Source: an uncultured Alphaproteobacteria bacterium (GTDB taxonomy: Bacteria; Pseudomonadota; Alphaproteobacteria; Rhizobiales; Hyphomicrobiaceae). Taken from it: a stretch of 64,000 nt of DNA. Location of the stretch: assembly GCA_963741505.1 (NCBI GenBank), contig CAVUIJ010000008.1:17114-81113 (forward strand). Direction: 5' to 3'. Positions 42,309 to 63,949 of the stretch are shown here, in pieces. Below the pieces are notes generated by a model. The model ran no database searches, was not told the origin of the DNA, and saw only the letters and a program-made list of their open reading frames with translations. Each line of letters starts with the position of its first letter. The stretch's first letter is position 1. The translations under genes and the position numbers were made by a program.

Positions 42309-43013
42309 ATGAGACAGATGATGGAACCGTCGGCTTCGTCGAATGGCTCGCCGCGCAGGGCGCGACGGTTGTGGTGGGTCTTCCGCGGCGCGTTGTTGGT
42401 GGTGGTGGCGTGCGTGGTTGTTTCGGGCTGGGGAGACGTCAACCTGAGCGCGCAGACGCCGCGGCGTGGCGACGTCTCCGGCGAAAGCGTTCCCTTCGCC
42501 CCGCCGCGACCGCCGAAGCCAAAGAGGGATCTCATTCACGCGCAAGACGGCCGCTTCTGGCGCCGGTTGGTCAACGATGGCCTGCATGACAGGGCCAATC
42601 CGTCTGTCGGCAAGCTGCGCGAGCCGGCGCGGGCCCTTTCCAAACTTCCGGGCAAGTCGGAGGAGATCGGCAACAATGTCGACTGGGTGGCCGCTCTGCG
42701 CCAGGGCCTAATCGCGCCGAAAGACCGTCTGAGGCCGGGCGCGGCTCCTGAACGTCTCAGTACTGACATCATCATGCCGCGCACGGCAGCGATGCCGATG
42801 GTGCGCTTTCCCCACCGCGCGCACACGGAGTGGCTCGACTGTTCGAACTGCCATGACGACCCCTTCGTCAAGAAGGCGCGCGCCAACCGCTTCAACATGG
42901 AGGACATCCTCGCGGGCGAGTATTGCGGCCGTTGCCATGGCGCAGTAGCGTTCCCGCCGACCGACTGCTTGCGCTGTCACAGCGTGGAGCGAGGTTTAGG
43001 GGTGGCAAACTGA
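42309..43013 (+). CDS. membrane-anchored c7-like trihaem cytochrome c
   Basis: TM LWWVFRGALLVVVACVVVSGW, linker with VDWVAALRQGLIAP, then FPHRAHTEWLDCSNCH...YCGRCHGAVAFPPTDCLRCH (3 CXXCH). Confidence 0.8.
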   Translation: MRQMMEPSASSNGSPRRARRLWWVFRGALLVVVACVVVSGWGDVNLSAQTPRRGDVSGESVPFAPPRPPKPKRDLIHAQDGRFWRRLVNDGLHDRANPSVGKLREPARALSKLPGKSEEIGNNVDWVAALRQGLIAPKDRLRPGAAPERLSTDIIMPRTAAMPMVRFPHRAHTEWLDCSNCHDDPFVKKARANRFNMEDILAGEYCGRCHGAVAFPPTDCLRCHSVERGLGVAN

Positions 43014-43387
43014 TGAAACGGGTGCTTTTCGCTGCCGCCGCTCTGGCCGTGATTTCGGTGGTTGCGGCGCACGCCGAGTACGGCGACGTGGTGCTGAATG
43101 ACCGCTCGGAGACCGGCGGCATACGGCCGGTCATTTTCCCGCACTGGGTCCATCGCACGGTCTACAAGTGCCAAGTCTGCCATGTGGAACTTGGCTTCAA
43201 GATGAAGGTCGGCGGCAACCGCATCACCATGGGTGACGTTTATTCCGGCCGCTATTGCGGCGAGTGTCATGACGGGAAGACGACCTGGGGGATCGAGGAC
43301 AATTGCGGGCGCTGCCATTCGGGCCGCAAGGGCACGCCGACAGGCGTTCACGGCCGTCACCGCACCACGGGGCCAGGATTTCGGTGA
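43013..43387 (+). CDS. small periplasmic c7-like trihaem cytochrome c
   Basis: Signal MKRVLFAAAALAVISVVAAHA, then FPHWVHRTVYKCQVCH...YCGECHDG...NCGRCH. The start overlaps the upstream stop (TGATG). Confidence 0.8.
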   Translation: MKRVLFAAAALAVISVVAAHAEYGDVVLNDRSETGGIRPVIFPHWVHRTVYKCQVCHVELGFKMKVGGNRITMGDVYSGRYCGECHDGKTTWGIEDNCGRCHSGRKGTPTGVHGRHRTTGPGFR

Positions 43388-43395
43388 TATTGCGT

Positions 43396-45000
43396 ATGCG
43401 TCTATCGCGGGGCCTCGCCAACGCGGCGCGTCATGGCCGGGCGGCTCCGTCTATACTCTTGCTCGCCTTGCTTCTCTCTATGGCGTGGCCGGGTTTGCCG
43501 AAGGCGCAATCGGCTGAAGAGGGACGTGCCATCTACGAGCGGCGCTGTAGCGTCTGCCATGGTGATCGGGGCAACGGGGCATACTGGGCGAGCGACAGCC
43601 TCGTCCCGCCGCCGCGCGACTTCACACGCACCGACCCGGAAGCGCTGAGCCGCGTGGTCATGATCGACGCCGTCGCCCATGGGCGCGAAGGGACCGCGAT
43701 GACGGCCTGGCGCGGCCGGTTGTCGCCTTTGCAGATCGACGCCGTGGTCGATTTCATCCGGGCGGAATTCATGTCCCGCCACGGCGAGGTCGCGGCAAAG
43801 AGCCCATCTGGCGTTCCCTTTCCCGGCGGGCTGAAGGGTGATGCGGCCAAGGGGAGCGTCTTCTTTCACGCCAATTGCGCCGAGTGCCATGGTCATTCGG
43901 GCGACGGGCGCGGACGGCGTGCGGAGATGAATGTCAAGAAGCCGCTCGATTTCACCTCGCCCCAGACGAGACGCGCGTTCGATCGGGCGAGATTGTTCGT
44001 GTCGATCTCCGCCGGCGTGCCGGGGACTACGATGCCCGCCTGGTCGAAAGTGCTGAGCAACCAGCAGATTGCCGATGTGGCGGAGTATGCGTACCGCGTG
44101 TTCATTGCGGGCGATAGCGCGGCGAAAGCCCACGCCGCGTCGAGCGACGAGGCTCCGGACGCCGGCAGGCGGATCTATCTTCAGCACTGCTCCTACTGCC
44201 ATGGCCAAAAGGGCGATGGCCGCACCGCCGCGGCGCAAGTGCTCGCCCCCAAGCCGAGAGACTTCACCGGCCTGCCGCGGCTCAGCGTCGATGAAGTCAC
44301 CGCCGCGGTCCGCAAAGGGCGCGACGGCACAGCCATGCCTTCCTTCGCCAAGGTCCTCTCCAATGCGCAGGTCAAGGCGGTGGCCGAGTATGTGGCGCTG
44401 AGCCTCGCAGCGCGCAAAGGCGAGGACGAGCGCTATCACACCGCCAAGAACGGTTGGCCGGACCATGATGCCCGCTACGGCCCGGCCATTCCCTTCGCGT
44501 TGGGCGAACAGGCCGTCAATGCGCCGCTCTCGACCTTGTCTCCGGCGCAGCGCGCAGGGTTGGAACTCTTCAAGGGCGCCTGCGTCTCCTGCCATTTCGG
44601 AAGGCGTGACACGCGATTGGGGACGCCAATCGCGGACACGAGCCACAAGGACACGGGCCACAAGCCGGCGGACTATGAGATGGGTGTGCATGACAAGGTG
44701 CCAGAAATCGCCGATCTGACGCCGACCGAAGCGGAGGGTCGTCGGCTGTATCAGGCGGCATGCGCGCAGTGCCACGCTGCGGATGGCACCGGCGCGAACT
44801 GGATCGGACGCTTCCTCAAGCCCTCGCCGACCGACTTCAACACACCTAGTTACCGAGCGCTTCTGTCGTCCGACGGGTTTGTCATGCGGACGTTGCGCGC
44901 GCCTGACGGCACCTCCATGCCATCGTTCGAAAATGTACTGAGCCGCGAGCAGGTCGAGGCGATCGCGGCGTATGTGCGCCGCGCATTTCAGACGCCGTAG
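43396..45000 (+). CDS. five-haem cytochrome c built from tandem class-I (cbb3/FixP-type) domains
   Basis: CSVCH, CAECH, CSYCH, CVSCH and CAQCH, each in a G..(I/L)Y...C..CHG context with a downstream GT(A/S)MP(A/S)(W/F). A GTG at 43384 overlapping the upstream TGA is an alternative start. Confidence 0.8.
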   Translation: MRLSRGLANAARHGRAAPSILLLALLLSMAWPGLPKAQSAEEGRAIYERRCSVCHGDRGNGAYWASDSLVPPPRDFTRTDPEALSRVVMIDAVAHGREGTAMTAWRGRLSPLQIDAVVDFIRAEFMSRHGEVAAKSPSGVPFPGGLKGDAAKGSVFFHANCAECHGHSGDGRGRRAEMNVKKPLDFTSPQTRRAFDRARLFVSISAGVPGTTMPAWSKVLSNQQIADVAEYAYRVFIAGDSAAKAHAASSDEAPDAGRRIYLQHCSYCHGQKGDGRTAAAQVLAPKPRDFTGLPRLSVDEVTAAVRKGRDGTAMPSFAKVLSNAQVKAVAEYVALSLAARKGEDERYHTAKNGWPDHDARYGPAIPFALGEQAVNAPLSTLSPAQRAGLELFKGACVSCHFGRRDTRLGTPIADTSHKDTGHKPADYEMGVHDKVPEIADLTPTEAEGRRLYQAACAQCHAADGTGANWIGRFLKPSPTDFNTPSYRALLSSDGFVMRTLRAPDGTSMPSFENVLSREQVEAIAAYVRRAFQTP

Positions 45001-45207: not shown

Positions 45208-45876
45208 TCAGTTTTCTGCCTGGCGTCTTGGCCCGTTGTGACAACGGAAACACTGATCAGGAGGGAACGCTACCGTGCCGTGGCAGACACCGCAGGCTTT
45301 GCCTTGGAAGATCTCGCTCATGCGGATCACGTTCGCGCCCGCCTTGTCCTTGAACAAATCGTTGTGGCAATTCGAGCAGGCGAGCCACTCCGTATGAACT
45401 GCGTGGGAAAATGTCACGGTGGGCATGCTGCCAGTGTTGCGAAGTATCGTTTCGCTCTTGAGCAGCTTCATCTTGCTCACCTTGTCGGCCTCGGCGCGTG
45501 GCTCAATCACGCCGTTCTTCAGCGCCGCCACCCAATCGACGAAATTGCCGGCCCCGGCGCGCGGCAGGCTGCGCATCGCCTCCACCGGCGGCTGTAGCCT
45601 TTTGACCGCGTCGCTCTGCGGATCGTGATGGCCGTCTCCCTGCAGTGTACGCCACGGGTTCTTCATGTCGATCGGCCCGCCGTCGCGCTCCCAGTAGGAG
45701 GTGGCGCGCCTGCGGGCATCAGCCAGCGGCTCGAAGCCGCCGGCGGGCGCCGGATTACGTACAGCCTCCTGAGCAAGCGCGATTTTCTCGGAGCCGAACA
45801 GACAGGCGAGTGCCGCTAGGCAGACGCCTGCGGCAAGCAAGGGCGAAGCCCTCTTCAAGATCGGCATCGATCGCAT
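45208..45876 (-). CDS. membrane-anchored c7-like trihaem cytochrome c (paralogue of 42309-43013)
   Basis: VDWVAALKNGVIEP; FSHAVHTEWLACSNCH...ACGVCHGTVAFPPDQCFRCH. Confidence 0.8.
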   Translation of the reverse strand: MRSMPILKRASPLLAAGVCLAALACLFGSEKIALAQEAVRNPAPAGGFEPLADARRRATSYWERDGGPIDMKNPWRTLQGDGHHDPQSDAVKRLQPPVEAMRSLPRAGAGNFVDWVAALKNGVIEPRAEADKVSKMKLLKSETILRNTGSMPTVTFSHAVHTEWLACSNCHNDLFKDKAGANVIRMSEIFQGKACGVCHGTVAFPPDQCFRCHNGPRRQAEN

Positions 45877-46258: not shown

Positions 46259-46413
46259 GCGCGGCTCAGAATCGGATGAGGGCGCTATACTACCGTCGGC
46301 GCTGGCCGTTCATCTCGGGAGTGTGGCAACGCAGATACTGAGCTGTAGTCGCACTATGTTAGAGAGTGTTAAGATGATTCTATGCCGCGCGGACTAGGAA
46401 CGAAGGATTGAGA

Positions 46414-47598
46414 ATGGCGGGTATGCCGCTCACATTTCTGAAATCCAAGTTTTTTCGTGGCGCGGCTGCTGCAGCGATCGCGCTGGCGTTGTTGAGCGCA
46501 TGCACAAGGCTGGAGTTGGAGCCGGCCGCGCCGGGCGGGCCGCTGGAGCGCGCCGAGTCGGCCAAGCCCTTGGTCTACCCGCCGGCGCCGGCCGCTGTGC
46601 GCTTCATTCACGAGGCGACGATTCTGAGCAGCGCCGATGTGATTCCCGAGACCAACGCCGACCGCGTTCGGCTGTTCGCCACGGGCTTTGGCCGCACGGC
46701 CGAGGCGTTCGGAAAGCCGTTCGGGCTGGTCGCCCGCCACGGCCGGCTCTATGTGAGCGACACGGTGCGGCGGCTTGTTCATGTGCTCGACCGGGCGAAC
46801 GGCGAATATCGCCAGATCGGGACTCAGGAGCCCGGCCGCCTCACCAAGCCCTTGGGGCTGGCCGTCGACGACGGCGGGAGGTTGTATGTCAGTGACGTGA
46901 CCACCCGGCGGATACTGATCTATGACGCTGGCGGCGCATTTGTCGCAGCGGTTGGCGGGCCCAAAGATCTGACGCGCCCGTCTTCGGTCACCGTCTCGCC
47001 GGATGGCTCGCGGATCTACGTGCTGGACACCGGCGGCGTCGACAATAATCAACATCGCATCGTGGTATTCGACGCTGCGGGTCGGCGCGTGAACGTGATC
47101 GGTAAGCGCGGCGGGGGCGCGGGGGAATTCAACCTGCCGCTGGCTATCGAGCGCGCGCCCGACGGCGGGCTGTATGTCGTCGATACTGGCAATTTCAGAG
47201 TGCAAAAGCTGAGTGCCGATGGCGCGCCTTTGTCGGGTTTCGGCAAGCCGGGCCGTTATCCCGGACAGTTCGGGCACCCCAAGGATCTCGCGCTCGACGC
47301 CGACGGAAACATCTATGTCACCGACGCCAGCTTCGGCGTGTTCCAGATATTCAACTCGTCCGGTCGCATCCTGCTTTCGATCGGCGAGCGCAACGAGCAA
47401 GGCGGGCGCGGGCGGTTCCTGCTGCCTGCGGGCATTGACGTCGACGTTGATGGGCGTGTTTATGTTGCCGATCAGTACTTTAGGAAGATCGAGGTATTTC
47501 GACCCGCCTCGCTCCCAGCGTCGACCCCTCCGGGGGGACGGGTGGCGGCGATGCGCGCGGGAATTGCCGAGAAATCAGTCACGTTCCAGCCAAAATGA
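46414..47598 (+). CDS. NHL-repeat six-bladed beta-propeller lipoprotein
   Basis: Lipobox ALLSAC. Repeated (K)P.G(L/V)A(V/L)D..G.(L/I)YV(S/V/T)D modules, e.g. GRLYVSDT, GRLYVSDV, SRIYVLDT, GGLYVVDT, GNIYVTDA, GRVYVADQ. Confidence 0.85.
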   Translation: MAGMPLTFLKSKFFRGAAAAAIALALLSACTRLELEPAAPGGPLERAESAKPLVYPPAPAAVRFIHEATILSSADVIPETNADRVRLFATGFGRTAEAFGKPFGLVARHGRLYVSDTVRRLVHVLDRANGEYRQIGTQEPGRLTKPLGLAVDDGGRLYVSDVTTRRILIYDAGGAFVAAVGGPKDLTRPSSVTVSPDGSRIYVLDTGGVDNNQHRIVVFDAAGRRVNVIGKRGGGAGEFNLPLAIERAPDGGLYVVDTGNFRVQKLSADGAPLSGFGKPGRYPGQFGHPKDLALDADGNIYVTDASFGVFQIFNSSGRILLSIGERNEQGGRGRFLLPAGIDVDVDGRVYVADQYFRKIEVFRPASLPASTPPGGRVAAMRAGIAEKSVTFQPK

Positions 47599-47614: not shown

Positions 47615-48388
47615 ATGCGAGTGGAAAGAAGGGCGCGTTTGACGCGATCCGGCGCGGTCGTGGGCCTACTGCTTGTCGCTGCCGTCGCTTGGTCCGATCT
47701 CGCAGGGGCTCAGAGCGGCATCCGGGGCTCCAAGCACGACCTCGGCAATGGCCAGAACGACAATTACGAGGTCTGCGTCTACTGCCATACGCCCCATGGC
47801 GCCAACAGGGAAGTCGACGCGCCGCTGTGGAACAAGCCGGGCGGCGTGCAGGCATATCGCACTTATGACAGCGCCACGATTGACGGCAAGATCTTGCCCG
47901 TCGGATCGGTTTCCACCGCCTGCCTGTCGTGTCATGACGGCACTCAGGCGATGGACACGGTGATAAATGCGCCGGGCAGCGGCCTCGGTAGAGGCCGCAT
48001 CGGCTCGGGCGTCGGCGCGCTCAGCCCGAACGTCATCGCCAATCTCGGCGTCGATCTGCGCAACGACCATCCGGTGGGCGTGCAGTATGGCGGTTTCGAC
48101 CCAGGCCGCGGCCAGATCGATCCGGACTTCGTCAACAGAGCTACCGGCCTGCAATCCGCGCTTATGCTCGGGCGCATGCGTTGGTGGGTCGACACGGAAC
48201 GCGTCCCGAACGGGAATCGGGACAAGACCGACATGATCCTCTACACACGCAGCGTCGATGGCGTCGACCAACCGTTCGTGGAATGCGCCACCTGCCACGA
48301 TCCGCATCGCGGCTCGGGCACCAATCCGGCGTTCATGCGGCTCACCAACAAGGGCAGTAATCTGTGTCTGTCCTGCCATATCAAGTGA
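47615..48388 (+). CDS. periplasmic tetrahaem cytochrome c (SKHDL...CxxCHTPH type)
   Basis: Signal then GSKHDLGNG..YEVCVYCHTPH, CLSCHDG, NDHPVGVQY, VECATCHDPH, LCLSCH (4 CXXCH). Confidence 0.85.
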   Translation: MRVERRARLTRSGAVVGLLLVAAVAWSDLAGAQSGIRGSKHDLGNGQNDNYEVCVYCHTPHGANREVDAPLWNKPGGVQAYRTYDSATIDGKILPVGSVSTACLSCHDGTQAMDTVINAPGSGLGRGRIGSGVGALSPNVIANLGVDLRNDHPVGVQYGGFDPGRGQIDPDFVNRATGLQSALMLGRMRWWVDTERVPNGNRDKTDMILYTRSVDGVDQPFVECATCHDPHRGSGTNPAFMRLTNKGSNLCLSCHIK

Positions 48389-49386
48389 GTGCGAGGCCGA
48401 GGCGCACGCATGTATTGAAGACGGCCTGGTGCGGCGTCCTGGCCCTGGCTGCGGCTCTGACCGCGGTGCCTGCGCTCGCCACCGAGCAGCAGAAATTGGT
48501 GATCGCACGCGTTAACGACCAGCCAGTCACCGGCGGGGACTTCGCGCCGTATCTGCGCGCCTACTTGCGCTCCAAGCTCTATCACTCGGGCTCACCCGAG
48601 CGCACACGCGCGCTCGCCGAGGAGGCCATCGACGCTTTCCTGATCGATCGGGTGCTGACTGAGCAGGCCGCCGCGCAAGGGCTGAAAATCGGCGAGGCCG
48701 AGGTCGAAAAGCGCCTTGCGGACATCAAGACCCGGTTCGGCGACCGGCCCGAGTGGCCCGAAATCGCATCACGCCTGCCGAAGCTGCGCGAGGAGATCGA
48801 GACGGATTTGCGGATCGAGGCCCTCAAGCGCGAAATAAGCCGCGCCGATCCGCCGACCGAGGCGGAGATCCGCGCATTCTACGAGAGCCAACCCGAGCTG
48901 TTCACCCGCCCGGCGGCCTATCGGCTCAAGCTGCTGCTGATTGCCGTGGAGCCGGGAGCGAGCGCAGAAGCCTGGCGCGCCGCCGAGGTACAGGCACAGG
49001 AATATGCGCGTAGGGTCGCGGCAGGCGAGGACTTCGCCGCGCTTGCGCGCGCTACTTCGAAGCACAGCTTGGCCGAACTGGGCGGCGCGACCGGCCTCGT
49101 CCATGAGGGCCAGTTGGGCGAGGCGGCCGAGGCCGCGCTGCGCCCCGCCAAACCCGGAGAGGTGGCCGGACCCGTCCGTCTGCTGGAGGGCGTCGCCCTT
49201 TTTGCTGTCGAGGAAAAACGTCTTCCGACACTCATGCCGTTGCCCGAGGTAAAAGAACGCGCCTCGATATTGATGGAACGCGATCGAGCGAAAAAGCAGT
49301 GGAATAGCTTCGTAGAAACAATAAGAGGGAAATTCTCCATCGATAGGTCTGCATTTGCGGAGTTTCTCGCAGGCGCCCTCAGGTAA
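48385..49386 (+). CDS. SurA/PpiC-type peptidyl-prolyl isomerase / periplasmic chaperone
   Basis: Signal AWCGVLALAAALTAVPALA, a SurA-N-like helical region, and a rotamase-like block LLLIAVEPGASAEAW..A..YARRVAAGEDFAALA. The GTG start overlaps the upstream TGA. Confidence 0.65.
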   Translation: MSARPRRTHVLKTAWCGVLALAAALTAVPALATEQQKLVIARVNDQPVTGGDFAPYLRAYLRSKLYHSGSPERTRALAEEAIDAFLIDRVLTEQAAAQGLKIGEAEVEKRLADIKTRFGDRPEWPEIASRLPKLREEIETDLRIEALKREISRADPPTEAEIRAFYESQPELFTRPAAYRLKLLLIAVEPGASAEAWRAAEVQAQEYARRVAAGEDFAALARATSKHSLAELGGATGLVHEGQLGEAAEAALRPAKPGEVAGPVRLLEGVALFAVEEKRLPTLMPLPEVKERASILMERDRAKKQWNSFVETIRGKFSIDRSAFAEFLAGALR

Positions 49387-49481
49387 GCACTAGGCAGACT
49401 GGCGATGCTTAGCGGCAGGCTCTCGGAAGGGCGGATACGAAGAAGCAGACAGTCCGGCTGCGGGCGTATTATCGTAGCGCG

Positions 49482-49779: not shown

Positions 49780-49852
49780 CGAGTGCTGCCGAAGAATTGA
49801 CCGCGGAAGAAAACGAGCGCCAGCGGGAGATCTTGGAGAAAGGCATTTAGTC

Positions 49853-53960: not shown

Positions 53961-53963
53961 AGC

Positions 53964-56072: not shown

Positions 56073-57152
56073 GGGGACGCCTTCGGCGCGATGAGCCGCA
56101 CAACGCCGCCTTTCACCCCGGCGAACACATCGCCGCCGCTGGCAACAGTAAGCGCATAGACATGAGCGGGCGAACGACCGAGATCGTGGCTGGTCCAACG
56201 CGTCCCGTCGAAGCTGGAGACACCCTTGTTGGTGCCGAACCACATGACGCCTTTCTCATCCTGGGCGAGACTGTAGACGATGTCACCTGCCAGCCCGTCT
56301 CGACTGGTATAGTTGGTCCAGATACCCTCTCGCGACAGTAGTGCCGCGCCGCCGCCCCAAAGCCCGAACCAAACGCCCTTGCCCGTCCGGTCGACATGCA
56401 CAGCGAACACGTAGTTCTCATTATAGCTGCTGCCGCCTTCTTTGCCGACGTCGAGGTCATGGCGCGATTTGCGTGCCCAGTCCGGTGTTGGTGCTGGCGG
56501 CTGCGCCCGCGAGATTTGGCGCGCCGAGCCCTTCTGTATGGGTCCAGCTTCGCCACTTTGAGCCGTCGAACATGGAGACGCCGCCCTCGGTGCCGAACCA
56601 GACGCGGCCCTCGGCGTCGATATCGACACCATAGACCCAGTGATTGATCAACTCGTCATGATAGGTGGTAAAGGTGTCGGTCTTCGGGTCGTAGAGATTG
56701 GCGCCGTCCCAGGTGCCGATCCAGACCCGCTGCCGGTCGTCGAAAGCAAAGGCGTAGACCCAATAATCCGCCAGCCCGTGCATGGGAAAGAAGGTGCGCC
56801 ACTTGCCATTCTGCAGCCGCGACGCGCCGCCGGCGTTGGTACCGAACCAGACCGCATTGTCCGGCGCCAGGCCGATGGCGAAGACGTACTCGTTCGCCAA
56901 CCCATCCTTGCGCGTGAAGCGATTGCGCGGATCCATGCTGGTGAGGTCGATCTCCAGCACGCCGTTGGAGGCGCCGACCCAGAGGGAGCGCTGCTTGGCG
57001 TCCACCGCCAGCGAGCGGACATAGCTCTGGTCGCCCAAGCCGTAGAACTCGACCTTGCGGCCGGCGGCCGAGGCCGGCGCGGTTGCCACAATGCAGGCGG
57101 CCAGCAGACAAGTGACACTAACGCCGCAACGATCGAACATAGGCCAAAACAT
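56069..57152 (-). pseudogene. second Reg_prop beta-propeller (paralogue), one frame break
   Basis: ORF 56457-57185 (..DGLANEYVFAIGLAPDNAVWFGTNAGGASRL..) continues in ORF 56069-56632 (..NYVFAVHVDRTGKGVWFGLWGGG..). Break near 56470. Confidence 0.7.
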
Positions 57153-57426
57153 CGAGCAGCTCCCTCCCACGGAGCACCACTTCAAAACCCGGCATCAGGC
57201 CCCTGCCGTATCGCAAGCTGCGCACGAGCGACTGCTCGGGCGCCATCAGCCCGTCGCCTCTGGAGAAATCGGGCGTTCCCGGCATCTGCGGAACGCCGTT
57301 GTTGCCATGACAACGCGCGCAGTGCTCCGCGTAAATCTTACGTCCCTTGAAGTAATCGCCAGCGTGCGCCGGCGCGGCCGAGAAGACAGCGGTCAAAGCG
57401 AGGGCTATAGGCGTGACGCGTTTCAT
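57118..57426 (-). CDS. monohaem class-I cytochrome c
   Basis: Signal MKRVTPIALALTAVFSAAPAHA. GRKIYAEHCARCHGNNG...GLMPGF (Met ligand context). Confidence 0.85.
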   Translation of the reverse strand: MKRVTPIALALTAVFSAAPAHAGDYFKGRKIYAEHCARCHGNNGVPQMPGTPDFSRGDGLMAPEQSLVRSLRYGRGLMPGFEVVLRGRELLDVLAYVRSLRR

Positions 57427-58463
57427 TTCGGCTCCGTTTTCTGACGACCCGCGGTCAGGATCTCCGATACCGTCCGCTCCGCAGCGTCAGCGGGCCATTC
57501 GCGGGCGCCGATGACGCGAGCCAGAACCGCGCCGCTCGAATCCAGGAACAGCGTCTGCGGGTAGGATTCCACCTGGAAGCGCTCGCGCGCAAAGGCACCC
57601 TTGCCGTCCCAGAAATTGCCGAATGATACCCCCGTATCGCGGATGAACTCTCGCGCGAAATCGCGATCCTTGTCAATATTGAGGCCGACAAGACGATAGC
57701 GCTTCGGATCGAGGGCGGCGGCGAAGGCTTGCAGGCTCGGCATTTCTGCGCGGCAGGGACCGCACCAGGAAGCCCAGAAATTCACGATAGAGATCATCCC
57801 TTCGGGAGGGGTCAGCGCATCGGGCGTCTCGGCGATGGCGGGCAGCGGCGCCGGCGCGGGCATGGCGCTCTTCGCCGTGGCAGCTGCGGCATGAGCCTTC
57901 GCAGCCCCGCCGCCTAGCTGCGGTGACTGAGGTTTCGCCGTGGCGGCCGCGGCATGGGCCTTCGCGGCATCGTCACCTTGCTGCGGCACCTCGCCCTTGT
58001 CGGCGGCCTCCCATTCCCATAGCGCCGAAAGCGCCTTGCGCCGGAAAGGATCGTCCTTGGCGGCGAGATGGACGAAGGTCCGCATGGCGCCCATCGCGCC
58101 TTTGCGATCGCCTGCGGCCTCGAGCGCCGCGCCAAGCCCGTAATAGGCGTTGATCTGTCGGGGATTGATGGTCAGCGCGCGGTCGAATGCGCTCGCCGCC
58201 TCGCTGGCGCGCTCCATCGCCAGATAGGCGAAGCCCAGATTGGCATGCGCCTCGGCGACGTGGGGATTGATGGCGCGGGCCTGGTCGAAGGCTGCCACCG
58301 CCGCTTGGGCGTCGCCGAGGCGCATCGCCTCTATCCCGCGAGTGAAGGCCTGACCAAAAGGAGTTGCGCTATTTGACGCGACCTGCTGCGGCGCGGTCCT
58401 GATCTCGGGGCCGCTGCCTGGCAGGATCTCCAGGATCAGGCCAACCACCAGGATGACCACCAT
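57423..58463 (-). CDS. TPR-domain / TlpA-ResA-like thioredoxin fusion (thiol:disulfide oxidoreductase)
   Basis: N-terminal TM, TPR repeats (AEAHANLGFAYLAMERASEAASAFDRALTINP), an Ala-rich tandem linker, and thioredoxin VNFWASWCGPCRAEMP. Confidence 0.8.
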   Translation of the reverse strand: MVVILVVGLILEILPGSGPEIRTAPQQVASNSATPFGQAFTRGIEAMRLGDAQAAVAAFDQARAINPHVAEAHANLGFAYLAMERASEAASAFDRALTINPRQINAYYGLGAALEAAGDRKGAMGAMRTFVHLAAKDDPFRRKALSALWEWEAADKGEVPQQGDDAAKAHAAAATAKPQSPQLGGGAAKAHAAAATAKSAMPAPAPLPAIAETPDALTPPEGMISIVNFWASWCGPCRAEMPSLQAFAAALDPKRYRLVGLNIDKDRDFAREFIRDTGVSFGNFWDGKGAFARERFQVESYPQTLFLDSSGAVLARVIGAREWPADAAERTVSEILTAGRQKTEPK

Positions 58464-58526: not shown

Positions 58527-59364
58527 TCAAACCGCTCCCTTATGTGGCGAGGTCGAGATGAACGGCACTCCGAAAAACGTGTAAAACGCCACGCAGAAGA
58601 TTAGAAGACTGAAGATCGCGCCCAACATCGGCCGCGCCGTGCTGCGCGGGCGCAGATGCAGAAACAGCAGCGTCGCGGTCCAGTTCACGAAGGCCCAGCT
58701 TTCCAGCTGATCCCAGGCCCAGTAGCGCTGCCAGGCGTTCTGCGCCCAGGCGGCACCGGCGACCAGCATCAGGCTCTGGAACACCACGGCGATCAGCAAC
58801 AGGCGATAGATATCGGTCTCCAGCGAAGCGGAGTCGGGCAGGCTGGAGAAGCGCATGCCTGAGCGTCTGGCGGCAGAGCAGCACCAGACCCAGTCCGGCG
58901 GCAGGAGTAGCCAGCCCGAGGAAGAACTTGCCGAACGTCACATGGATCGGCAGCCAGATCGTCGCGTAGGTCACGGGCGCCAATGTGTTCTTCACGGGCG
59001 TGAGCCACATCCAGACGGTCAGCACCGCCAGCAGCGGCAGCGTGCAGGCCAGCGCAGGCCGCAGGCGCGGCAGGCTGAGGAACACCACCAAGACAGCCAG
59101 ATGCAGGCTCCAGACATTGCTCGAGAGAACCTCGAACATATCCACATAGGGCCCGTGGCCGAGCCGGATCCACCTATAGGCAATGGCGACCGTGTGAAAC
59201 GTCAGGCCTGCCGCTAGGAGGCCGAAGGTCGCCTGCTGGCGCCCCGTGCGAAATGCGGTCGAGACTATGGAATGCGCCGTCGCCGCCAGGTAGAGCACGA
59301 CGGCGATCCCCAGCATCTGCGCCTCGAACGCAGCTCCGCTTTGCGCAACGACGTCAGGTCCCAT
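58527..59364 (-). pseudogene. ccsA: System II cytochrome c synthase subunit CcsA, one frame break
   Basis: The N-terminal TM part (ORF 58540-59364) joins ORF 58527-58856, which carries the WWD motif GAAWAQNAWQRYWAWDQLESWAF. Break near 58858. Confidence 0.8.
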
Positions 59365-60356
59365 GCTCTGCCTCCGGCACCGGCATTCGGGAGCCGATTG
59401 AAGAACACGGACAGCACGTGGGCCAGCAGCGCAACGCAGGCCATGATGCCGGTCGCGGCGATCCAGTGGTTCAAGGACTGGCCGACAATGGTGTAGCCCA
59501 TCCAGCTGCGCAGCCCGTCATAGCGAAGCTGGGCCGAACCTAGCGCGACGACTTCGCCGACCTGCAATTCGTGGCGCTTTTCGCCGTCGATCAGTACCAG
59601 GCGGCTGTTGACCGGTTTGGAGAATTTCCACGCTTTGTCCTTCTCGAACACCGGTTCGGGCATGTGGAGCCATACCTTCAACGGCTTGGTCGCGCCCGGC
59701 GGGGTCCAGGCAAGGCCCTGCTGGTTGTCGTTGATCGGGTAGGACGGCAAGTGAATCGCCCCGGTCTGCGCCGCGCCGGAGGCGCTCACATAGGTCAGAA
59801 TCGGCGCGAAGCCCTTGTTGTGGGTCGTGTAGAAGCGATAGTCGCCGAAGATCAGCGGCGTGTCATCGCCGACCCGCACCTCGCGCCATGTGCCATCCTG
59901 CTGGGCGATGCGGATCAGGCTCTCCGTCTCGCGCCGTTTCATGCCGGGTGCGTAGGTGATCTCGAATGGGCCCTGCAGGAACTTGACCTCGTTCAGGCGC
60001 AACTGATGCAGCAGCCCGGCCTCCGCCGTCACTGTCGCAGCATCAAACATCGAGCCCTCGGTGACTTCGACGCGACCCGACATCGAGTTCAGCCGATCAA
60101 GGCCGATCACCACGATCAAAGCGACCAACGCCGCGTGCAGGGCGAAGAGCATCGGCAGGCTCTTCAGCCGCGCACTGGTGGCCAGCGCCGCCAGAAGATT
60201 GGCCAGCATCAGCACGAGAGGGAGCACCATCCAGTCGGAGGTCCGGATCGGAAAATAGATACCCGCAATGGCAATGACGCCGCACAGTGCGATCAACGCG
60301 GCAGTTGTCTCTGCCGAGCCGAGGCGGCGGAGCGTGCTTCGGAACGTCTCTTTCAA
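59265..60356 (-). CDS. ccsB: System II cytochrome c biogenesis protein CcsB/ResB-like (exact 3' end uncertain)
   Basis: N-terminal TMs (AALIALCGVIAIAGIYF, MVLPLVLMLANLLAAL, MLFALHAALVALIVVIGL), a large soluble loop and a C-terminal TM HWIAATGIMACVALLAHVL. The last ~100 nt overlap ccsA. Confidence 0.7.
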   Translation of the reverse strand: MKETFRSTLRRLGSAETTAALIALCGVIAIAGIYFPIRTSDWMVLPLVLMLANLLAALATSARLKSLPMLFALHAALVALIVVIGLDRLNSMSGRVEVTEGSMFDAATVTAEAGLLHQLRLNEVKFLQGPFEITYAPGMKRRETESLIRIAQQDGTWREVRVGDDTPLIFGDYRFYTTHNKGFAPILTYVSASGAAQTGAIHLPSYPINDNQQGLAWTPPGATKPLKVWLHMPEPVFEKDKAWKFSKPVNSRLVLIDGEKRHELQVGEVVALGSAQLRYDGLRSWMGYTIVGQSLNHWIAATGIMACVALLAHVLSVFFNRLPNAGAGGRAWDLTSLRKAELRSRRRCWGSPSCSTWRRRRIP

Positions 60357-60366
60357 GGCGCGGTCC

Positions 60367-62845
60367 TCATGGCGGGTTCGCGCAGTTTTCGGAGCTATCC
60401 TTCATCCAGTTCTTGCCGGTCTCGCCATTACCGGGTGGGCCAACGGAGCCGCAATTCTTGTCTTCCCAATTGCCGCTCTGGGCAAATGACACGACCTTCA
60501 GCACCGAGCCGAGATAATATGGTCCGTTGGTATAGGGCGCGGTGGTGTTGTTGCGCACCTGCGTGCCAGGTGGCAGGCCTCCCTCCGGACCCACATCGTT
60601 CAGGTTCACGAGGAACGCCTTGTTCTTCCAGCCGTGGGGCACGGCAACGTGGCACCAGGTGCACTGCATGCGACCGATCTTGTCGGCATGGAAGGCGTGC
60701 AAGTTCTTCTTGCTGCCGCTGCTCTTGTCCGAGAAGCCGCTCCTGAAGTCCTCGCCCGCCTTCGTCGCATAGCGCTCGTAGACGTGGCACTTGAAGCAGA
60801 TGTCGTTTTCGGTGCCGGGCGCGCCAGTCCGTGCGGTGAGGCCGCCTTTCAGAATGAAGTTGTTGTTGGAGCCGTGCGGACCCCAGGAGCGGCCGTTCTC
60901 GCCGCCCTGCGGAACGATGGTGCCGGGCGCGGTCTCCGAACCGTGGCAGTCCGAGCAATACATGGTCTGCACGCCGATCTGGTCCGGCTGGTTCCAGGGC
61001 GGCAGCCAGAGGTTCGGATTGACGGGGTCGCCGGGGCCGCCGCGGATCGCGAGCGTGCGCCCGGTCGCCTCCATCACTGGATGCCAGGATCGGTGTTCGG
61101 AAACCGTAACGCTGCCGCCGGAGACGCCCGAGCCGCTGATGACCTTCGTCGGCTCGCCCCGGTCGGCGAGCGGCGCCTGGAACTCCATGGCTTGGTCGGT
61201 GTAGCGCCGCACAGCATTGGTTCCCGGCGGCGTGCCGCCCCGGCTCTGGCCCAGTTCAGGTGGCCGGATGTAGCCGTAGGTGGAGTGGCATTTCAGGCAG
61301 ACCTGATACTCGCGCGTGACCCAGGGCGCGGAGGCTGCGGTGGAGCCGCCCACCGGCGGGTTGCCACGCTTGACATTGAAGACCACAGGCGGGCTCAGGA
61401 ATTGGGGCGAGCCGTAGACCGGCTCGACGCCCCAGCTTCCGCGTAACACACCCGAGGCGATGTTGGTCTGCGGCACGCCCGGGCTACGGTCGCGCGTGCC
61501 CACCAAGTCGGGAACCGTAGGCGGAGCGTTGAAGATCCGGTTGCGGATCACGCGATGCGGATTATGGCAATCCGTGCACTCCACGTGGCGGTTGCGATCA
61601 TTGCCCCGGCCCAGCAATTTCCGGCTTTCGATATGGTCCTTGCCAGCTTGCGGCTCAGAGCCGGTGCCGATGTCATGCACTTCCGGTCGTTCATCGATCG
61701 GCATGCGCCGCAGGCTCTGGAAGTCCCGCTTGATGTCCGGAACGCTCGAGCCCGGCGATCCCTGGCCGTTCAGCACGTGTTCGGTCGAGGAATGGCATTG
61801 GTAGCAGCCTTCCTCCATGGCCGACTGGCCGCCCTGCTTGGGCGTCGTGACGCTGTCGGTGGCCTCGCGCAACAGCCGCCGGGAACCCTGGACGGTATGT
61901 GTGTCATGGCAGTTCAGGCAGCCGGCGCGCCAGACCGGCATTCCGACCGGAAACTCCCGCAGATTGGCGGCGTTGGCGGAGTAGGTCTCGTTGGCGACCA
62001 AGTTGTTCGCGTGCGCGGAGTCGACCCAGCCTTCCTTGTCGTGGCAGCCGAGGCAAAGCTGGTCACGCTTCTTGTCGAAGAACGGACCGGCAGCCGGCGT
62101 TTCCTGGAAGCGGTTCAGACGCAGGAACTTGATGTTTTCGGGGCCCGTGTCACGGATATGCGGATCGTGACACGAGGTGCATTCCAGCTTGTTGTCCGTC
62201 AGCGGCAAGCGCCGGATGGAGACCGGGCTTGTGCGAGCCCAAGTCTGGCGTGGACGACGGGCGGCGCAGCTCGCCGTCATCGTTCGCCAGCCGGTCGTCA
62301 TAGGTGAATGAGATCGGATGATCGTTAGTCAGATCGGTTCCCAACCGCCGCGTGAAGCCGGTCGAGGCGCCCTCGCCTTCGGGCATCGTTCCGTCCGGCG
62401 CGGTTCTGGAGAGCTTGATGTCCAGGTTCTGGCGCCCCTGGAGCACCAGGATTGAACCGAGCGCGACCGTGCCGTCATGGCACGAGAGGCAGAGCCTGGA
62501 GGAGCCGCCAGGCTGACCTGACCCGGCGGACTCGAACCAGCGCTTGCCCGCGTCGAACGAGGACGACGTGTAGGGCCTGTAGATCGCTCCGGAAAGGCGC
62601 CGGTTCCAGAGCGGCGGCGGCGCCGCTTCGTTAGCGGCGTGCGGCGTGTGGCAGAACACGCAGATCTGGTCTTGCTTGGAGCGCACTTGGCCCGGCCCGG
62701 TGACCGAGAGATTGTGCTTGGTGTTGGCGATGTCCGAAAGACGCTCGGCCAAGGCAGCCCCGAGCAGCGGCGCACAGATGCAGAGTGCGCCGAGCAAGAC
62801 GACCTGAATGCCTTTCAGGGCTCGGAGCAGGAAGCGCGCCGGCAT
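60367..62845 (-). pseudogene. ~826-aa undecahaem cytochrome c (tetrahaem SKHNL module plus a 7-haem extension), one frame break
   Basis: It starts MPARFLLRALKGIQVVLLGAL.. with TKHNLS..ICVFCHTPH, CLSCHDG and NDHPISFTY (ORF 62150-). It continues in ORF 60367-62301 with CTSCH, CLGCH, CLNCH, CYQCH, CTDCH, CLKCH, CSDCH, CFKCH and CTWCH. Break between about 62220 and 62290. Confidence 0.8.
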
Positions 62846-62847
62846 GC

Positions 62848-63949
62848 CTACCCCTCGGAAACTTTGGTAAGTTCTTTGAAGACAACCACTCGTGCCATTG
62901 AACATGTCGGCGACATATACATTCTGTTTGCCGTCTGTCCAAACCCCCGCGGGCAAGTGGAACGGGCCAACTTCGCCGCGGCCCTCGATCGGCAACAGCA
63001 ACTGGCCCTTCGCGTCGAAGACCAGCAGATGGTCGTGTCGCAATTCGACAACGTAGATGCGCCCGTCGCCGCCGACCGCGACGCCCTTGGGCCGCGTGAA
63101 CTGACCGACATAGAGGCCAGCCTTGCCGAAGGTCGTGGGAGCCGCTCCGTTCCCATCGAAGGACTGAACGCGGAAGTTCAGCGTGTCGCTGACGAACAGC
63201 CTTCCGTTGGCGAAGCTGAGATAGGTCGGCGCATTGAAGCGGCCCAGCGCATCGCCCGGCCCGCCGATGGTCGCTAGCAACTCGCCGGATGCGCTGAACT
63301 TCTTGACCACATGCTGGGCCGAATCGGCCACGAAGATTGCGCCGCTGCTCGGATCACGCGCCAGCCCTGTCGGCCGGGTGACAGCGCCGATACCGAAGTC
63401 CCCGCGCGGCTTGCCGTCCTTGCCGAGGCGCACCACCTTGGCGAGTTCGGAATCCGAAACCAGGTAACCGCCCTGGCCGTCTTCGACGACAGCGATCGGC
63501 GATTTGAAGCCGCGGTTATCGCCGGACTGGTCCCAGATCGAGAACGCTTTGTTGGCGAAATCGAAACGGACCAACGCCTTCAGGCCGGCGTCCACCACCA
63601 GCACCGAGCCATCCTCTAGCGTCAGCCCCGACGTCGGCCGCTTCAACTCCTTGTACCTTTGCTCGCCGGTCGCGATGCCCGCGATCGACCGAGCCACGTC
63701 AGTCAGAATGTTGCCGGCGGAACTCTTGCCGGAGACCGTCTGCTCGCCCACCAGCACCGCGCTCAGCCTATAGCGCGCCTTCTCCGGCGGAGCGGGCCAC
63801 TCCAGATTCTTGCTCTGTTCGCTGTCCGCACTCTGTCCGGGCTTCGACAGGCCCGAATTCTCCAGTGAAGTGCATGTAGCAAGCGTCGATAGGCTGACTA
63901 CGGCCCCTCCGACACGAACCAGACGCCACCTCCAATTGAGTCTGCTCAA
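62848..63949 (-). pseudogene. NHL-repeat beta-propeller lipoprotein (paralogue of 46414-47598), frame break 45 nt before its stop
   Basis: Lipobox LSTLATC. Repeats GSVLVVDA, GGYLVSDS, GAIFVADS, GRLFVSDT, GRIYVVEL, QNVYVADM. The natural end ..FNG|RVVVFKELTKVSEG* lies in ORF 62848-63156. An extra A near 62893 fuses it in silico to the cytochrome. Confidence 0.8.

Follow-up and report, generated by a model that had tools for sequence, protein, structure and literature searches.

An alphaproteobacterial gene island that probably encodes a Uet-type extracellular electron-transfer module related to OmcE cytochrome-nanowire clusters

The 64-kb window, by which we mean the whole stretch of DNA that was analysed, contains a 21.6-kb island (42309-63949) of cytochrome, propeller, barrel and haem-attachment genes. 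An earlier note on this DNA had counted seven c-type cytochromes with 30 CXXCH motifs, and a count for each open reading frame gives the same result (3+3+5+3+4+1+(2+9)); every one of these cytochromes carries a signal peptide, as judged from the sequence. Scans of the island ORFs with Pfam and NCBIfam profiles also upheld the rest of the reported gene content, namely two NHL lipoproteins, each encoded directly 5' of a cytochrome gene (uetA and uetJ), a PpiC/SurA chaperone, two Reg_prop propellers, a Sel1 protein and haem-attachment genes. The overlapping junctions are all as claimed, with TGATG at 43011, GTGA at 43384 and 48385, and ATGA at 54921, 56069 and 57423. The patch just before the island (41587-42308), described as lower in GC, is indeed lower, at 60.0% versus 65.0% in the upstream 42 kb, but the drop is modest; the island as a whole has 63.5% GC.

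The island begins on the plus strand with two genes for c7-type trihaem cytochromes. The first product (42309..43013, three CXXCH, Cytochrome_C7 E=3e-11) has an N-terminal hydrophobic anchor or signal and is a UetE paralogue; it scores 61 bits against NCBIfam TIGR04257 (cut-off 40) and is 68-72% identical to its orthologues in the related loci L003 and L007. The second (43013..43387, three CXXCH, E=4e-17) is a small secreted UetD paralogue that also exceeds the TIGR04257 cut-off, at 75.8 bits, and its start overlaps the upstream stop within the TGATG. These are followed by a five-haem class I c-type cytochrome (43396..45000, plus strand, five CXXCH) with tandem domains resembling CcoP, subunit III of cbb3 oxidases (four Cytochrome_CBB3 stretches, E=1e-55); it is 72-77% identical in L002, L003 and L007, and the GTG at 43384 may be its start. 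A third c7-type trihaem cytochrome, UetG-like, lies on the minus strand (45208..45876, three CXXCH, E=5e-12), with its start probably at M38 of a 259-aa ORF (45208-45987), to judge from the sequence, and is 39-40% identical to the product of the c7 gene found 5' of the NHL genes in gammaproteobacterial loci L011-L013. The remaining class I protein is a monohaem cytochrome c (57118..57426, minus strand, one CXXCH, Cytochrome_CBB3 E=9e-11).

The centre of the island is a plus-strand group built around uetA. An NHL beta-propeller lipoprotein (46408..47598, lipobox LLSAC, NHL E=9e-26), encoded directly 5' of uetA, shares 29% identity across 329 aa (E=4e-34) with the NHL lipoprotein whose gene precedes omcE in G. 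sulfurreducens. UetA itself (47615..48388) is a secreted tetrahaem cytochrome with a Paired_CXXCH_1 match and full-length PDB matches to 9yuq, the OmcE bundle of D. soudanensis (E=3e-27), and to 7tfs, the OmcE filament of G. sulfurreducens (E=5e-23). According to Petersen et al., the conserved haem ligands of OmcE are the four CXXCH motifs plus four other histidines. All eight haem-ligand histidines are present in UetA, and its four CXXCH motifs together with H41, H61, H152 and H231, which amount to eight Cys and eight His, are invariant over 62 homologues that include Geobacter OmcE. By its sequence, UetA is an OmcE-family protein. The AlphaFold2 model of UetA is poor (pLDDT 52) and does not confirm the OmcE fold. 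A conserved insertion of about 35 residues, missing from Geobacter OmcE, could alter or block polymerisation. The next gene, which comes after uetA in all related loci, encodes UetB (48364..49386), a prolyl isomerase of the PpiC type that is periplasmic and has an N-terminal domain resembling SurA (Rotamase_2 E=9e-15; SurA_N_3 E=1.5e-6).

The 616-aa signal-peptide protein that had been put forward as a beta-barrel candidate is UetC (51466..53316, plus strand), and structure prediction agrees with that proposal. Its AlphaFold2 model (pLDDT 77) has about 28 long antiparallel strands, and Foldseek matched the model exclusively to large outer-membrane barrels (TonB-dependent receptors, MtrB, LptD and ushers), with the best TM-score, 0.45, for MtrB (6r2q_B). 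UetC is thus a predicted 28-strand outer-membrane barrel, and the published UetC prediction (Eddie et al. 2022) also has 28 strands. Profile scans gave no Pfam or NCBIfam family match for the protein. The UetC family comprises 566 representatives at E<=1e-3, and its members adjoin uetA, uetB and c7 genes in related MAG loci; no sequence homology was detected between the family and the 752-aa protein encoded beside Geobacter omcE.

Genes for both System I and System II cytochrome c maturation are found in the island. Between uetB and uetC lie a ccmH remnant in two frames (49434..49776, plus strand; one frame matches CcmH profile positions 21-71, the other 69-122), which has no signal peptide, and a gene for a CcmI/CycH-type TPR protein of System I (49850..51196, plus strand, TPR_CcmH_CycH E=1e-19). 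At the position of the remnant, L002 and L003 encode CcmF, (CcmG), CcmH and CcmI, whereas ccmF and ccmG are missing from the window. The System II genes are on the minus strand and consist of ccsA, for a haem lyase subunit (58527..59364, Cytochrom_C_asm E=3e-15 in the C-terminal frame, ORF 58527-58937), and a gene for a short, divergent ResB/CcsB-like protein (59265..60356, ResB E=8e-7). The latter protein is 77-79% identical in most alphaproteobacterial loci, 70% in L010, 37-38% in gammaproteobacterial L011 and L013 and 32% in L014, and its gene is always directly 3' of uetJ. Also on this strand is a gene for a TPR plus thioredoxin-fold protein resembling ResA/TlpA thiol reductases (57423..58463, TPR_2 E=1e-12, AhpC-TSA E=8e-12); its NCBIfam matches to TlpA, ResA and DsbE all fall under cut-off, and it is the counterpart of the TPR 'NrfG' gene that follows ccsAB in the uet cluster. 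The same strand encodes secreted Reg_prop beta-propeller protein 1, with a signal peptide (56069..57152, Reg_prop E=6e-9 in the C-terminal piece), secreted Reg_prop beta-propeller protein 2 (54921..56075, E=2e-16; 78% identity in L003 and 51% in gammaproteobacterial L014) and a secreted Sel1-repeat protein (54337..54924, E=5e-16), whose L003 orthologue is 75% identical and likewise follows two Reg_prop genes.

The far end of the island carries the second NHL-cytochrome pair, again on the minus strand. A UetI-like NHL beta-propeller lipoprotein (62848..63949, lipobox LATC, NHL E=6e-14 in the 5' part of ORF 62150-63949) is 72-78% identical in alphaproteobacterial and 44-47% in gammaproteobacterial loci, and its gene is always directly 5' of uetJ. 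UetJ (60367..62845) is a secreted undecahaem cytochrome with a Paired_CXXCH_1 match (ORF 60367-62301). The cytochrome had been described as having 11 haems in 826 aa; the 11 CXXCH motifs stand, but they appear in one protein only after removal of one extra T at 62207/62208, which gives 825 aa from a start at 62845. Intact orthologues with 11 CXXCH motifs are present in L007-L011 and L013. The first 270 or so residues of UetJ form a complete OmcE-like tetrahaem module, which pairs with OmcE motif by motif in an alignment; the C-terminal extension after it carries the other seven haems. In the L007 orthologue, the N-terminus matches PDB entries 7tfs (E=9e-20) and 9yuq (E=1e-19), and no PDB relative was found for the remaining 570 or so residues. 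We found no mention of the OmcE-like module of UetJ in the literature searched.

This combination of genes matches, gene by gene, clusters that have already been described. The uet cluster of Eddie et al. (2022) consists of uetA-J, ccsBA and a TPR protein, and it shares with the island, in the same local order, the tetrahaem UetA, the PPIase UetB, the 28-strand UetC, the c7 proteins UetD, UetE and UetG, the NHL proteins UetH and UetI, the undecahaem UetJ, ccsAB and the TPR protein; the cupredoxin UetF is absent from the window. The 'secondary cytochrome cluster' of the cathode-oxidising Ca. Tenderia electrophaga has, like the island, a thioredoxin, a CcoP-like cytochrome, a pentahaem, two trihaems, an NHL protein and adjacent ccm System I genes, while the Sel1 protein of the island is not listed for it. 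We infer that two Tenderiales proteins with periplasmic sensor-type domains correspond to the two Reg_prop proteins. The mapping to Ca. Tenderia was made by gene order, domain content and gammaproteobacterial MAG proxies, and gammaproteobacterial MAG loci with the published uet order match the island in content and local order. The omcE locus of G. sulfurreducens likewise contains a c7 cytochrome, resB, ccsB, multihaem cytochromes, an NHL lipoprotein, OmcE and a large barrel-sized protein. Overall, the gene set is conserved in five Hyphomicrobiaceae/alphaproteobacterial and four gammaproteobacterial MAG loci on eight distinct contigs; the five alphaproteobacterial loci, two of them on one contig, keep the whole set in rearranged order. 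The island therefore probably represents the Uet module for extracellular electron transfer in an alphaproteobacterial, Hyphomicrobiaceae-like copy, and that module would itself be a proteobacterial form of the OmcE-type cytochrome-nanowire cluster.

What is known of the Uet system comes solely from comparative genomics and from expression data. In Ca. Tenderia on a cathode, the uet trihaem genes rank with the most strongly expressed of all genes; on an inactive sulfide chimney, one of the most abundant proteins was a homologous gammaproteobacterial tetrahaem. The uet cluster has also been reported in Gallionella. The proposal in the earlier note of an envelope-spanning redox chain, made of a barrel with periplasmic and extracellular multihaem cytochromes, matches the published account of homologous clusters (Eddie et al. 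2022), and its suggestion that class I c-type domains link the chain to respiration agrees with the same study. A working model can be drawn as follows. Haem would be attached to the cytochromes by the System II proteins that the island itself encodes (CcsB/ResB plus CcsA), with help from the TPR-thioredoxin thiol reductase. In the periplasm, UetB and the NHL lipoprotein would take charge of UetA, which would then either cross UetC or be attached to it; on the outside, UetA subunits would link into a polymer through His-haem ligation between neighbours, like the subunits of the OmcE filaments whose structures are solved. UetJ, with its own NHL partner, would join the same assembly, either as a wire inside the barrel or at one of the two filament ends. 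Transfer of electrons through the periplasm would fall to the three c7 trihaems, and the class I cytochromes with five haems and with one haem would link these to the bc1/ACIII and cbb3-type section of the respiratory chain.

The earlier note had presented the island as a candidate undescribed conduit, with a part list that none of the MtrCAB, PioAB/MtoAB and Geobacter Pcc/Ext conduits uses. The barrel is without a Pfam or NCBIfam family, Uet lacks biochemical characterisation, and no report of it in Alphaproteobacteria was found in the literature searched, but a new kind of conduit is now highly improbable: the claim fails because the gene set had already received its name and description in 2022 and turned up once more in 2023, a prior description that the earlier note had itself listed as refuting it, and the uet, Tenderiales secondary and omcE loci share the parts. 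Moreover, the family of the key cytochrome has two solved filament structures. Decay of the window copy into a non-functional island is also improbable, if less so. Five genes are frameshifted within 21.6 kb (uetJ, the UetI-like NHL gene, ccsA, the first Reg_prop gene and the ccmH remnant), four of them in an inverted second half of the cluster, and an IS1595-type transposase zinc-ribbon remnant (53403..53552, plus strand, Zn_ribbon_IS1595 E=1.2e-5) sits at the inversion breakpoint; in L007 the genes after the barrel are co-directional with it, unlike in the window. The IS1595 remnant, which had been noted before, is marginally over its cut-off (25.6 bits against 25.4), whereas the IS630 remnant noted with it was absent from every ORF tested. 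Each of the four lesions examined is a single inserted base in a gene intact in relatives: besides the T in uetJ, an extra A at 62893 replaces the last 14 residues of the NHL protein and fuses it in frame to uetJ, and 1-nt insertions lie near 58861-58866 in ccsA and near 56472 in the Reg_prop gene, where intact orthologues (L007 and L008, and L003, respectively) align over two window frames. Outside the island, lepA, an aldehyde dehydrogenase gene and an ABC transporter gene are also split or fused, so assembly error is most likely the cause of the frameshifts, rather than gene decay. Their density (five in 21.6 kb versus at least three in 42 kb) is not convincingly different, the nanopore-style MAG L002/L006 has similar splits at other sites, and the uet genes show a strong GC3 coding signal in the correct frames, with no premature stops or large deletions found. 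The window copy may nevertheless be impaired, given the absence of UetF, the truncated ccmH with ccmF and ccmG deleted, the inversion beside the IS remnant and the five frameshifts.

A filament-free porin-cytochrome conduit of the classical kind, as depicted by Eddie et al., is a more serious alternative, if still doubtful; here UetJ (or UetA) would be threaded in UetC as MtrA is in MtrB, with the other cytochrome on the surface. This arrangement partly overlaps the nanowire-type explanation. The top TM-score of the barrel, the insertion in UetA and the wide occurrence of OmcE-similar tetrahaem proteins, not all of which need polymerise, fit such a conduit; the complete set of OmcE haem ligands in UetA argues for a filament, as does the neighbourhood of uetA, since nanowire-type OmcE homologues, including those of Pseudomonadota, are recognised by a nearby large barrel and beta-propeller lipoprotein (Petersen et al.). 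In addition, the island contains no MtrA/DmsE-family decahaem (27-35 bits against an NCBIfam cut-off of 192) and no MtrB_PioB Pfam match. For the nanowire-type module, analogy with Tenderiales and Gallionella makes uptake from solid donors (Fe(II) minerals, sulfides, cathodes or partner cells) somewhat likelier than outward flow. Outward flow to insoluble respiratory acceptors (Fe(III)/Mn(IV) oxides, electrodes or partner cells), as with OmcE in Geobacter, is less likely: the experimentally studied OmcE filaments all come from metal- and electrode-reducing Desulfuromonadia, and multihaem conduits such as Mtr/Mto may be reversible, but the Uet bearers in the literature are all aerobic or microaerobic lithotrophs (cathode-oxidising Tenderiales and Fe-oxidising Gallionella), and class I CcoP-like c-type cytochromes such as those of the island are typically found where aerobic chains reach high potential.

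The genes of the island (42309-63949) correspond to those of two clusters already in the literature. The first, uetABCDEFGHIJ, was defined in Ca. Tenderia electrophaga, a cathode oxidiser (Eddie et al. 2022, mSphere 7:e0022322; bioRxiv 10.1101/2022.05.06.490989), and its products are a tetrahaem cytochrome (UetA), a peptidyl-prolyl isomerase (UetB), a beta-barrel with 28 predicted strands (UetC), three c7 trihaem cytochromes (UetD, UetE and UetG), a cupredoxin (UetF), two NHL propellers (UetH and UetI) and an undecahaem cytochrome (UetJ), after which come ccsAB and the gene for a TPR protein (nrfG). The second is a nearby 'secondary cluster' of the Tenderiales, which holds ccm System I, a thioredoxin, two proteins with periplasmic sensor-type domains, a CcoP-like cytochrome, a pentahaem cytochrome, two trihaem cytochromes and an NHL protein (Eddie et al. 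2022). Uet genes are also present in Gallionella (Hoover et al. 2023, PMC10734462), and a homologous tetrahaem cytochrome ranked among the most abundant proteins on an inactive sulfide chimney. The earlier note took the island for a candidate undescribed system, a claim that is not supported, since the uet and secondary clusters together cover most of its part list (Eddie et al. 2022); given this match in contents, the window is taken to hold both modules.

On the forward strand, the island begins with two c7-type trihaem cytochromes (42309-43013 and 43013-43387; Pfam and NCBIfam) and a five-haem class I cytochrome with CcoP-like domains (43396-45000; Pfam), and a third c7-type trihaem cytochrome lies on the reverse strand (45208-45876; Pfam). 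The three Cytochrome_C7 proteins carry 3 CXXCH each and are paralogues, and both of those put through the NCBIfam scan exceeded the TIGR04257 cut-off. Again on the forward strand come an NHL lipoprotein (46408-47598; Pfam), the 257-aa tetrahaem UetA (47615-48388; Pfam and CXXCH count), the PpiC/SurA-like isomerase UetB (48364-49386; Pfam), CcmI (49850-51196; Pfam) and the 616-aa predicted beta-barrel UetC (51466-53316), recognised by AlphaFold2, its ORF having no Pfam or NCBIfam family match. The remainder, on the reverse strand at 54.3-63.9 kb and assigned by Pfam and NCBIfam, comprises a Sel1 protein, two Reg_prop propellers, a monohaem class I cytochrome, a TPR-thioredoxin protein, CcsA, ResB and the large multihaem cytochrome UetJ (60367-62845). 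A second NHL lipoprotein (62848-63949, reverse strand; Pfam) precedes uetJ as the first precedes uetA, and tblastn mapping places the uetA-side protein nearer to the UetI type than to the UetH type. Signal peptides and lipoboxes were identified on island proteins. The tally of 30 CXXCH motifs in seven c-type cytochromes was reproduced from the ORF listing and motif count as 3+3+5+3+4+1+(2+9), and every overlapping start/stop junction quoted in the earlier note was found.

The likeness to Uet extends from the tetrahaem, isomerase and 28-strand barrel through three c7 trihaems and two NHL propellers to the undecahaem, after which the System II genes ccsB and ccsA and the TPR protein follow directly; the presence of a ccsBA pair is itself unusual for an alphaproteobacterium. 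The likeness to the secondary cluster lies in a thioredoxin, two propeller/sensor-domain proteins, a CcoP-like multihaem cytochrome, further trihaems, an NHL protein and the adjacent ccm System I. There are differences as well. The host is alphaproteobacterial (Hyphomicrobiaceae-like), a class for which no report of Uet was found in the searchable literature, and its two modules are joined and permuted, with the second half inverted. One NHL gene precedes uetA, as in Geobacter, rather than standing in tandem before uetJ, and the TPR protein carries a fused thioredoxin domain. No gene for the cupredoxin UetF was found within the window, and no batABD genes were seen.

These differences can be followed in related genomes. 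Clustered at 50%, the UetC barrel family comprises 566 representatives, and a 58-sequence barrel alignment (A2) was too divergent for a locus scan, so that a 15-sequence alignment was used as the query against species-representative genomes. The scan returned nine loci on eight contigs, five from Hyphomicrobiaceae or other alphaproteobacterial MAGs and four (L011-L014) from gammaproteobacterial ones, and the check for co-occurrence proposed in the earlier note was borne out, the gene set recurring at all of these MAG loci. Among named relatives, the closest to UetA is a protein of a Hyphomicrobiaceae MAG, at 89% identity. The gammaproteobacterial/Chromatiales loci L011-L014, used as a proxy for the Ca. 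Tenderia proteins, show 21-50% identity to the window per protein. By tblastn, L011-L013 have the published order: uetA, uetB, uetC, c7, c7, UetF-like, c7, NHL, NHL, uetJ, resB, ccsA. In the alphaproteobacterial loci, module 1 reads c7, c7, five-haem cytochrome, c7, NHL, uetA, uetB, and module 2 begins with uetC, c7, c7, two helical UetF-like genes, NHL and uetJ and ends with resB, ccsA, TPR-thioredoxin, monohaem c, two Reg_prop genes and Sel1. The modules stand in the order 1-2 in the alphaproteobacterial locus L007 and 2-1 in L008 and L003. The genes uetA, uetB and uetC are contiguous in L007 and L011-L014; in the window they keep the published order, with a ccmH remnant and ccmI between uetB and uetC. 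Beyond the barrel, module 2 of the window is inverted, and an IS1595 remnant sits at the breakpoint. Synteny with the relatives leads us to expect the two UetF-like genes and the UetE/UetD pair just past base 64000, and the direct UetD/UetE orthologues, which follow the barrel in the relatives, probably lie beyond the window end. At the UetF position the alphaproteobacterial relatives carry, instead, two secreted proteins that are helical throughout and paralogous to the C-terminal part of UetF (e.g. L007 13559-14476 and 14463-15395). The gammaproteobacterial UetF-like protein (L013 13073-14404) has a helical C-terminal domain and an N-terminus that looks cupredoxin-like by eye (YACRNHKYMGG), with no Pfam match. 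As judged from gene content and order, with Ca. Tenderia compared through the proxy loci, the island is an alphaproteobacterial, rearranged Uet/OmcE cluster that lacks UetF within the window.

The assignment to OmcE comes from UetA. This protein matches the OmcE filament of D. soudanensis (PDB 9yuq) over its full length with E=2.9e-27 and that of G. sulfurreducens (PDB 7tfs) over residues 11-257 with E=4.8e-23. Across 62 aligned homologues, Geobacter OmcE among them, its four CXXCH motifs (C54/C57/H58, C103/C106/H107, C224/C227/H228 and C251/C254/H255) and another four histidines (H41, H61, H152 and H231) show no variation, and this set is identical to the conserved haem ligands of OmcE, i.e. 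four CXXCH and four His (Petersen et al. 2025, bioRxiv 10.1101/2025.10.22.684050). On this sequence evidence, UetA is an OmcE-family protein. An insertion of about 35 residues (RWWVDT...KTDMILYTR; residues ~172-220, window 48130-48270) is conserved in Alpha- and Gammaproteobacteria and missing from Geobacter OmcE. An AlphaFold2 model of UetA made without haems from the 62-sequence alignment reached a pLDDT of 52, with the insertion as its sole confidently modelled beta-sheet part and with Foldseek matches at the level of noise, and for these reasons it is not counted as evidence.

The surroundings of uetA agree with this assignment. Petersen et al. (2025, bioRxiv 10.1101/2025.10.22.684050) described minimal omcE clusters of two multihaem cytochromes, two beta-propeller lipoproteins, OmcE and a large barrel, beside resB/ccsB, and found nanowire-type OmcE homologues with such clusters in Pseudomonadota as well; in the window, a propeller lipoprotein lies directly upstream of uetA and the 28-strand barrel 3 kb downstream. 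The G. sulfurreducens locus (GSU0612-0619 region) runs c7 cytochrome, ResB, CcsB, two multihaem cytochromes, NHL lipoprotein, OmcE, a 752-aa protein and glycosyltransferases. The island shares with this and the Desulfuromonas soudanensis cluster the full-length UetA homologue with the same CXXCH and distal His, the NHL lipoprotein directly upstream (homologous to that of Geobacter, E=4e-34), a nearby large barrel, a PpcA-like c7 trihaem and resB/ccsB. It departs from them in the insertion in UetA, in an isomerase between cytochrome and barrel, in the presence of class I c-type cytochromes and in the lack of a glycosylation gene block. Its partner multihaem is an 11-haem fusion with an OmcE module, whereas Geobacter has 370-aa and 330-aa cytochromes, to which the window protein is similar at the haem-motif level only. 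The barrels differ too: the 752-aa Geobacter protein occupies the large-barrel slot of Petersen et al. with no Pfam match, and the 616-aa UetC gave an hhalign probability below 1% against it and no match by phmmer or by hmmsearch with a 153-sequence profile, in a comparison whose sensitivity was limited by a Geobacter side of one sequence. Homology of the two was rejected on these negative results. Neither of the two Uet papers mentions OmcE, and the OmcE paper does not mention Uet.

The beta-barrel candidate of the earlier note fared well. Its AlphaFold2 model (pLDDT 77) has 28 long antiparallel strands, and Foldseek matched it to large outer-membrane barrels alone (TonB-dependent receptors, MtrB, LptD and ushers). 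The highest TM-score, 0.45, was with MtrB, a generic structural similarity that, with the encoding of a large outer-membrane barrel together with multihaem cytochromes, makes up the likeness to MtrCAB, MtoAB and PioAB. Those systems have 26 strands to the 28 predicted here, and the island adds c7 trihaems, NHL propellers and an isomerase. Membership in the MtrCAB or PCC type was rejected: the barrel has no match to the MtrB_PioB family of Pfam, and the island has no MtrA/DmsE-family decahaem, the DmsE-family scores being 27-35 bits against a cut-off of 192. A looser parallel is the osc (omcS-companion) cluster of G. sulfurreducens, for which papers citing Shen et al. (2025, Cell Chem Biol 32:239) describe a prolyl-isomerase chaperone (OscH), channel-like OscEFG and a beta-propeller (OscD). 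By these descriptions of function, a nanowire cytochrome is there too encoded with a prolyl isomerase, a channel and a beta-propeller, but it is of the OmcS type (6 haems) and that of the island is of the OmcE type (4 haems).

UetJ provides a second connection to OmcE. With the extra T at 62207/8 removed, uetJ of the window encodes 825 aa with 11 CXXCH, the number found in all intact orthologues, and the genes for ResB, CcsA and the TPR-thioredoxin protein come after it. Eddie et al. (2022, mSphere 7:e0022322) reported no recognisable domain in UetJ. Its N-terminal ~270 residues nevertheless form a complete OmcE-like module, the N-terminus of the L007 orthologue matching 7tfs with E=9e-20 and 9yuq with E=1e-19; the other ~570 residues of that orthologue have no PDB relative. 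The alignment with OmcE retains KH(D/N)L, CxxCHTPH, PLWN, CLSCHDG, NDHP, ECxSCHxxH and LCLxCHxK; all eight haem-ligand histidines are present, that of the N-terminal KH(D/N)L included, and the insertion of UetA is missing. It is conceivable, if in our judgement rather doubtful, that UetJ is a chimeric nanowire subunit whose OmcE module docks on a UetA filament and whose seven-haem extension forms the base or tip. In OmcE, one haem requires a His from another subunit (Petersen et al. 2025, bioRxiv 10.1101/2025.10.22.684050), and docking would use the same inter-subunit His-haem bond. As a base, the extension would run inside the 28-strand barrel of UetC and reach the c7 cytochromes of the periplasm; alternatively, it would sit at the filament tip. 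The omcE operons encode no candidate initiator, anchor or cap (Petersen et al. 2025, bioRxiv 10.1101/2025.10.22.684050). If the proposal were true, UetJ would be the first dedicated element of this sort found for any cytochrome nanowire, its gene lying in the subunit's own cluster, and aerobic lithotrophic Proteobacteria (Tenderiales, Gallionella and Hyphomicrobiaceae) would take up electrons by OmcE-type nanowires instead of disposing of them.

The proposed working of the whole is as follows. System II (CcsBA plus the TPR-thioredoxin protein) would mature the island cytochromes, and UetB and the NHL lipoproteins would help folding and export. UetA would be exported through UetC, or mounted on it, and would polymerise in the manner of OmcE, with UetJ part of the assembly either within the barrel or at the filament end. 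The c7 trihaems would carry electrons across the periplasm, and the class I cytochromes would link the c7 chain to the respiratory chain. The earlier reading of the island as an electron conduit stands as reasonable, and its description as an undescribed system does not, given the match to the Uet and OmcE clusters. A rival model has the same barrel and cytochromes acting as a porin-cytochrome conduit without polymerisation, which is how the Uet literature pictures the system; on the side of the filament model is the OmcE-type ligand set of UetA. Another rival has electrons flowing outward. By analogy, uptake is slightly favoured over this direction, because all the Uet hosts discussed oxidise cathodes or Fe(II) as lithotrophs.

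A third rival, that the island is a decayed copy, draws on its broken reading frames, which were mapped by GC3 frame plot, by protein-to-DNA alignment to intact orthologues and by DNA alignments. Single inserted bases were located at 62893, where the NHL gene is fused in frame with the large cytochrome, at 62207/62208 within uetJ, at ~58.86 kb in ccsA and at ~56.47 kb in the first Reg_prop gene; the ccmH remnant between uetB and ccmI (49434-49776) is truncated, without a signal peptide and in two frames, with the shift at ~49.58 kb. Housekeeping genes are frameshifted likewise, however. The lepA gene (2153-3957, forward) is split, with the GTP_EFTU domain in 2153-2737 and the other four domains in a different frame at 2632-3957. 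An aldehyde dehydrogenase (34281-35799, forward) occupies two frames, with Aldedh positions 1-340 in 34281-35744 and 334-461 in 35284-35799, and a 580-aa ORF (12745-14487, forward) combines an ABC ATPase domain with half of a BPD_transp_1 permease domain, probably by a frameshift fusion of two genes. In the MAG represented by L002 and L006, gene splits fall at sites other than those of the window. For these reasons the frameshifts are read as assembly errors and pseudogenisation of the island is judged unlikely; the lepA split points to errors throughout the window. The uetJ gene is also broken at another site in L002/L006 (~17.8 kb) and apparently in L014 (17524-19962), and its repeated interruption across assemblies is probably technical in origin. 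A programmed frameshift was rejected, as the break sites vary between assemblies and the ORF is continuous in seven relatives. In Ca. Tenderia electrophaga, uetJ is a pseudogene in the NCBI annotation yet highly expressed (Eddie et al. 2022, mSphere 7:e0022322).

The Uet module, earlier discussed for cathode-oxidising Tenderiales and Fe-oxidising Gallionella, is now placed in Alphaproteobacteria, in Hyphomicrobiaceae-like MAGs. The OmcE-family UetA and the OmcE-like module of UetJ also tie together two literatures, that of the Uet 'porin-cytochrome' model in electroautotrophy and that of the Geobacter OmcE nanowire structures. Should UetA polymerise, conductive filaments of cytochromes would extend beyond anaerobic metal reducers and could serve electron uptake from minerals or electrodes, and UetJ would be a concrete, testable candidate for the base or tip of the filament, which is still missing. 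For annotation, uet/OmcE-type names would be preferable to 'cytochrome c3 family protein' or 'hypothetical protein'.

The IS1595 remnant reported earlier is present as a zinc ribbon (53403-53552) directly after the barrel gene; it was the only transposase domain in the 20 intergenic ORFs/frames searched, and the IS630 remnant reported with it was not found there. A blastn search of 53317-54336 and 41587-42308 against plasmids gave no matches. The GC content is 63.5% in the island and 65.0% in the flank, a gap too uninformative to support horizontal transfer, which was set aside on this ground. In the 0.7 kb upstream of the island (41587-42308) the GC content is 60%, with neither a clear coding signal nor a family match, and one frame (41696-41863) resembles an IstB-like C-terminus (IstB_IS21) at a non-significant E=0.039. 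In relatives L002 and L003, the position equivalent to 49387-49850 holds ccmF, (ccmG) and ccmH, and L007 is without any ccm genes. At 5310-5921 on the forward strand, 36 kb ahead of the island, is a gene for a cytochrome b561 (Ni_hydr_CYTB).
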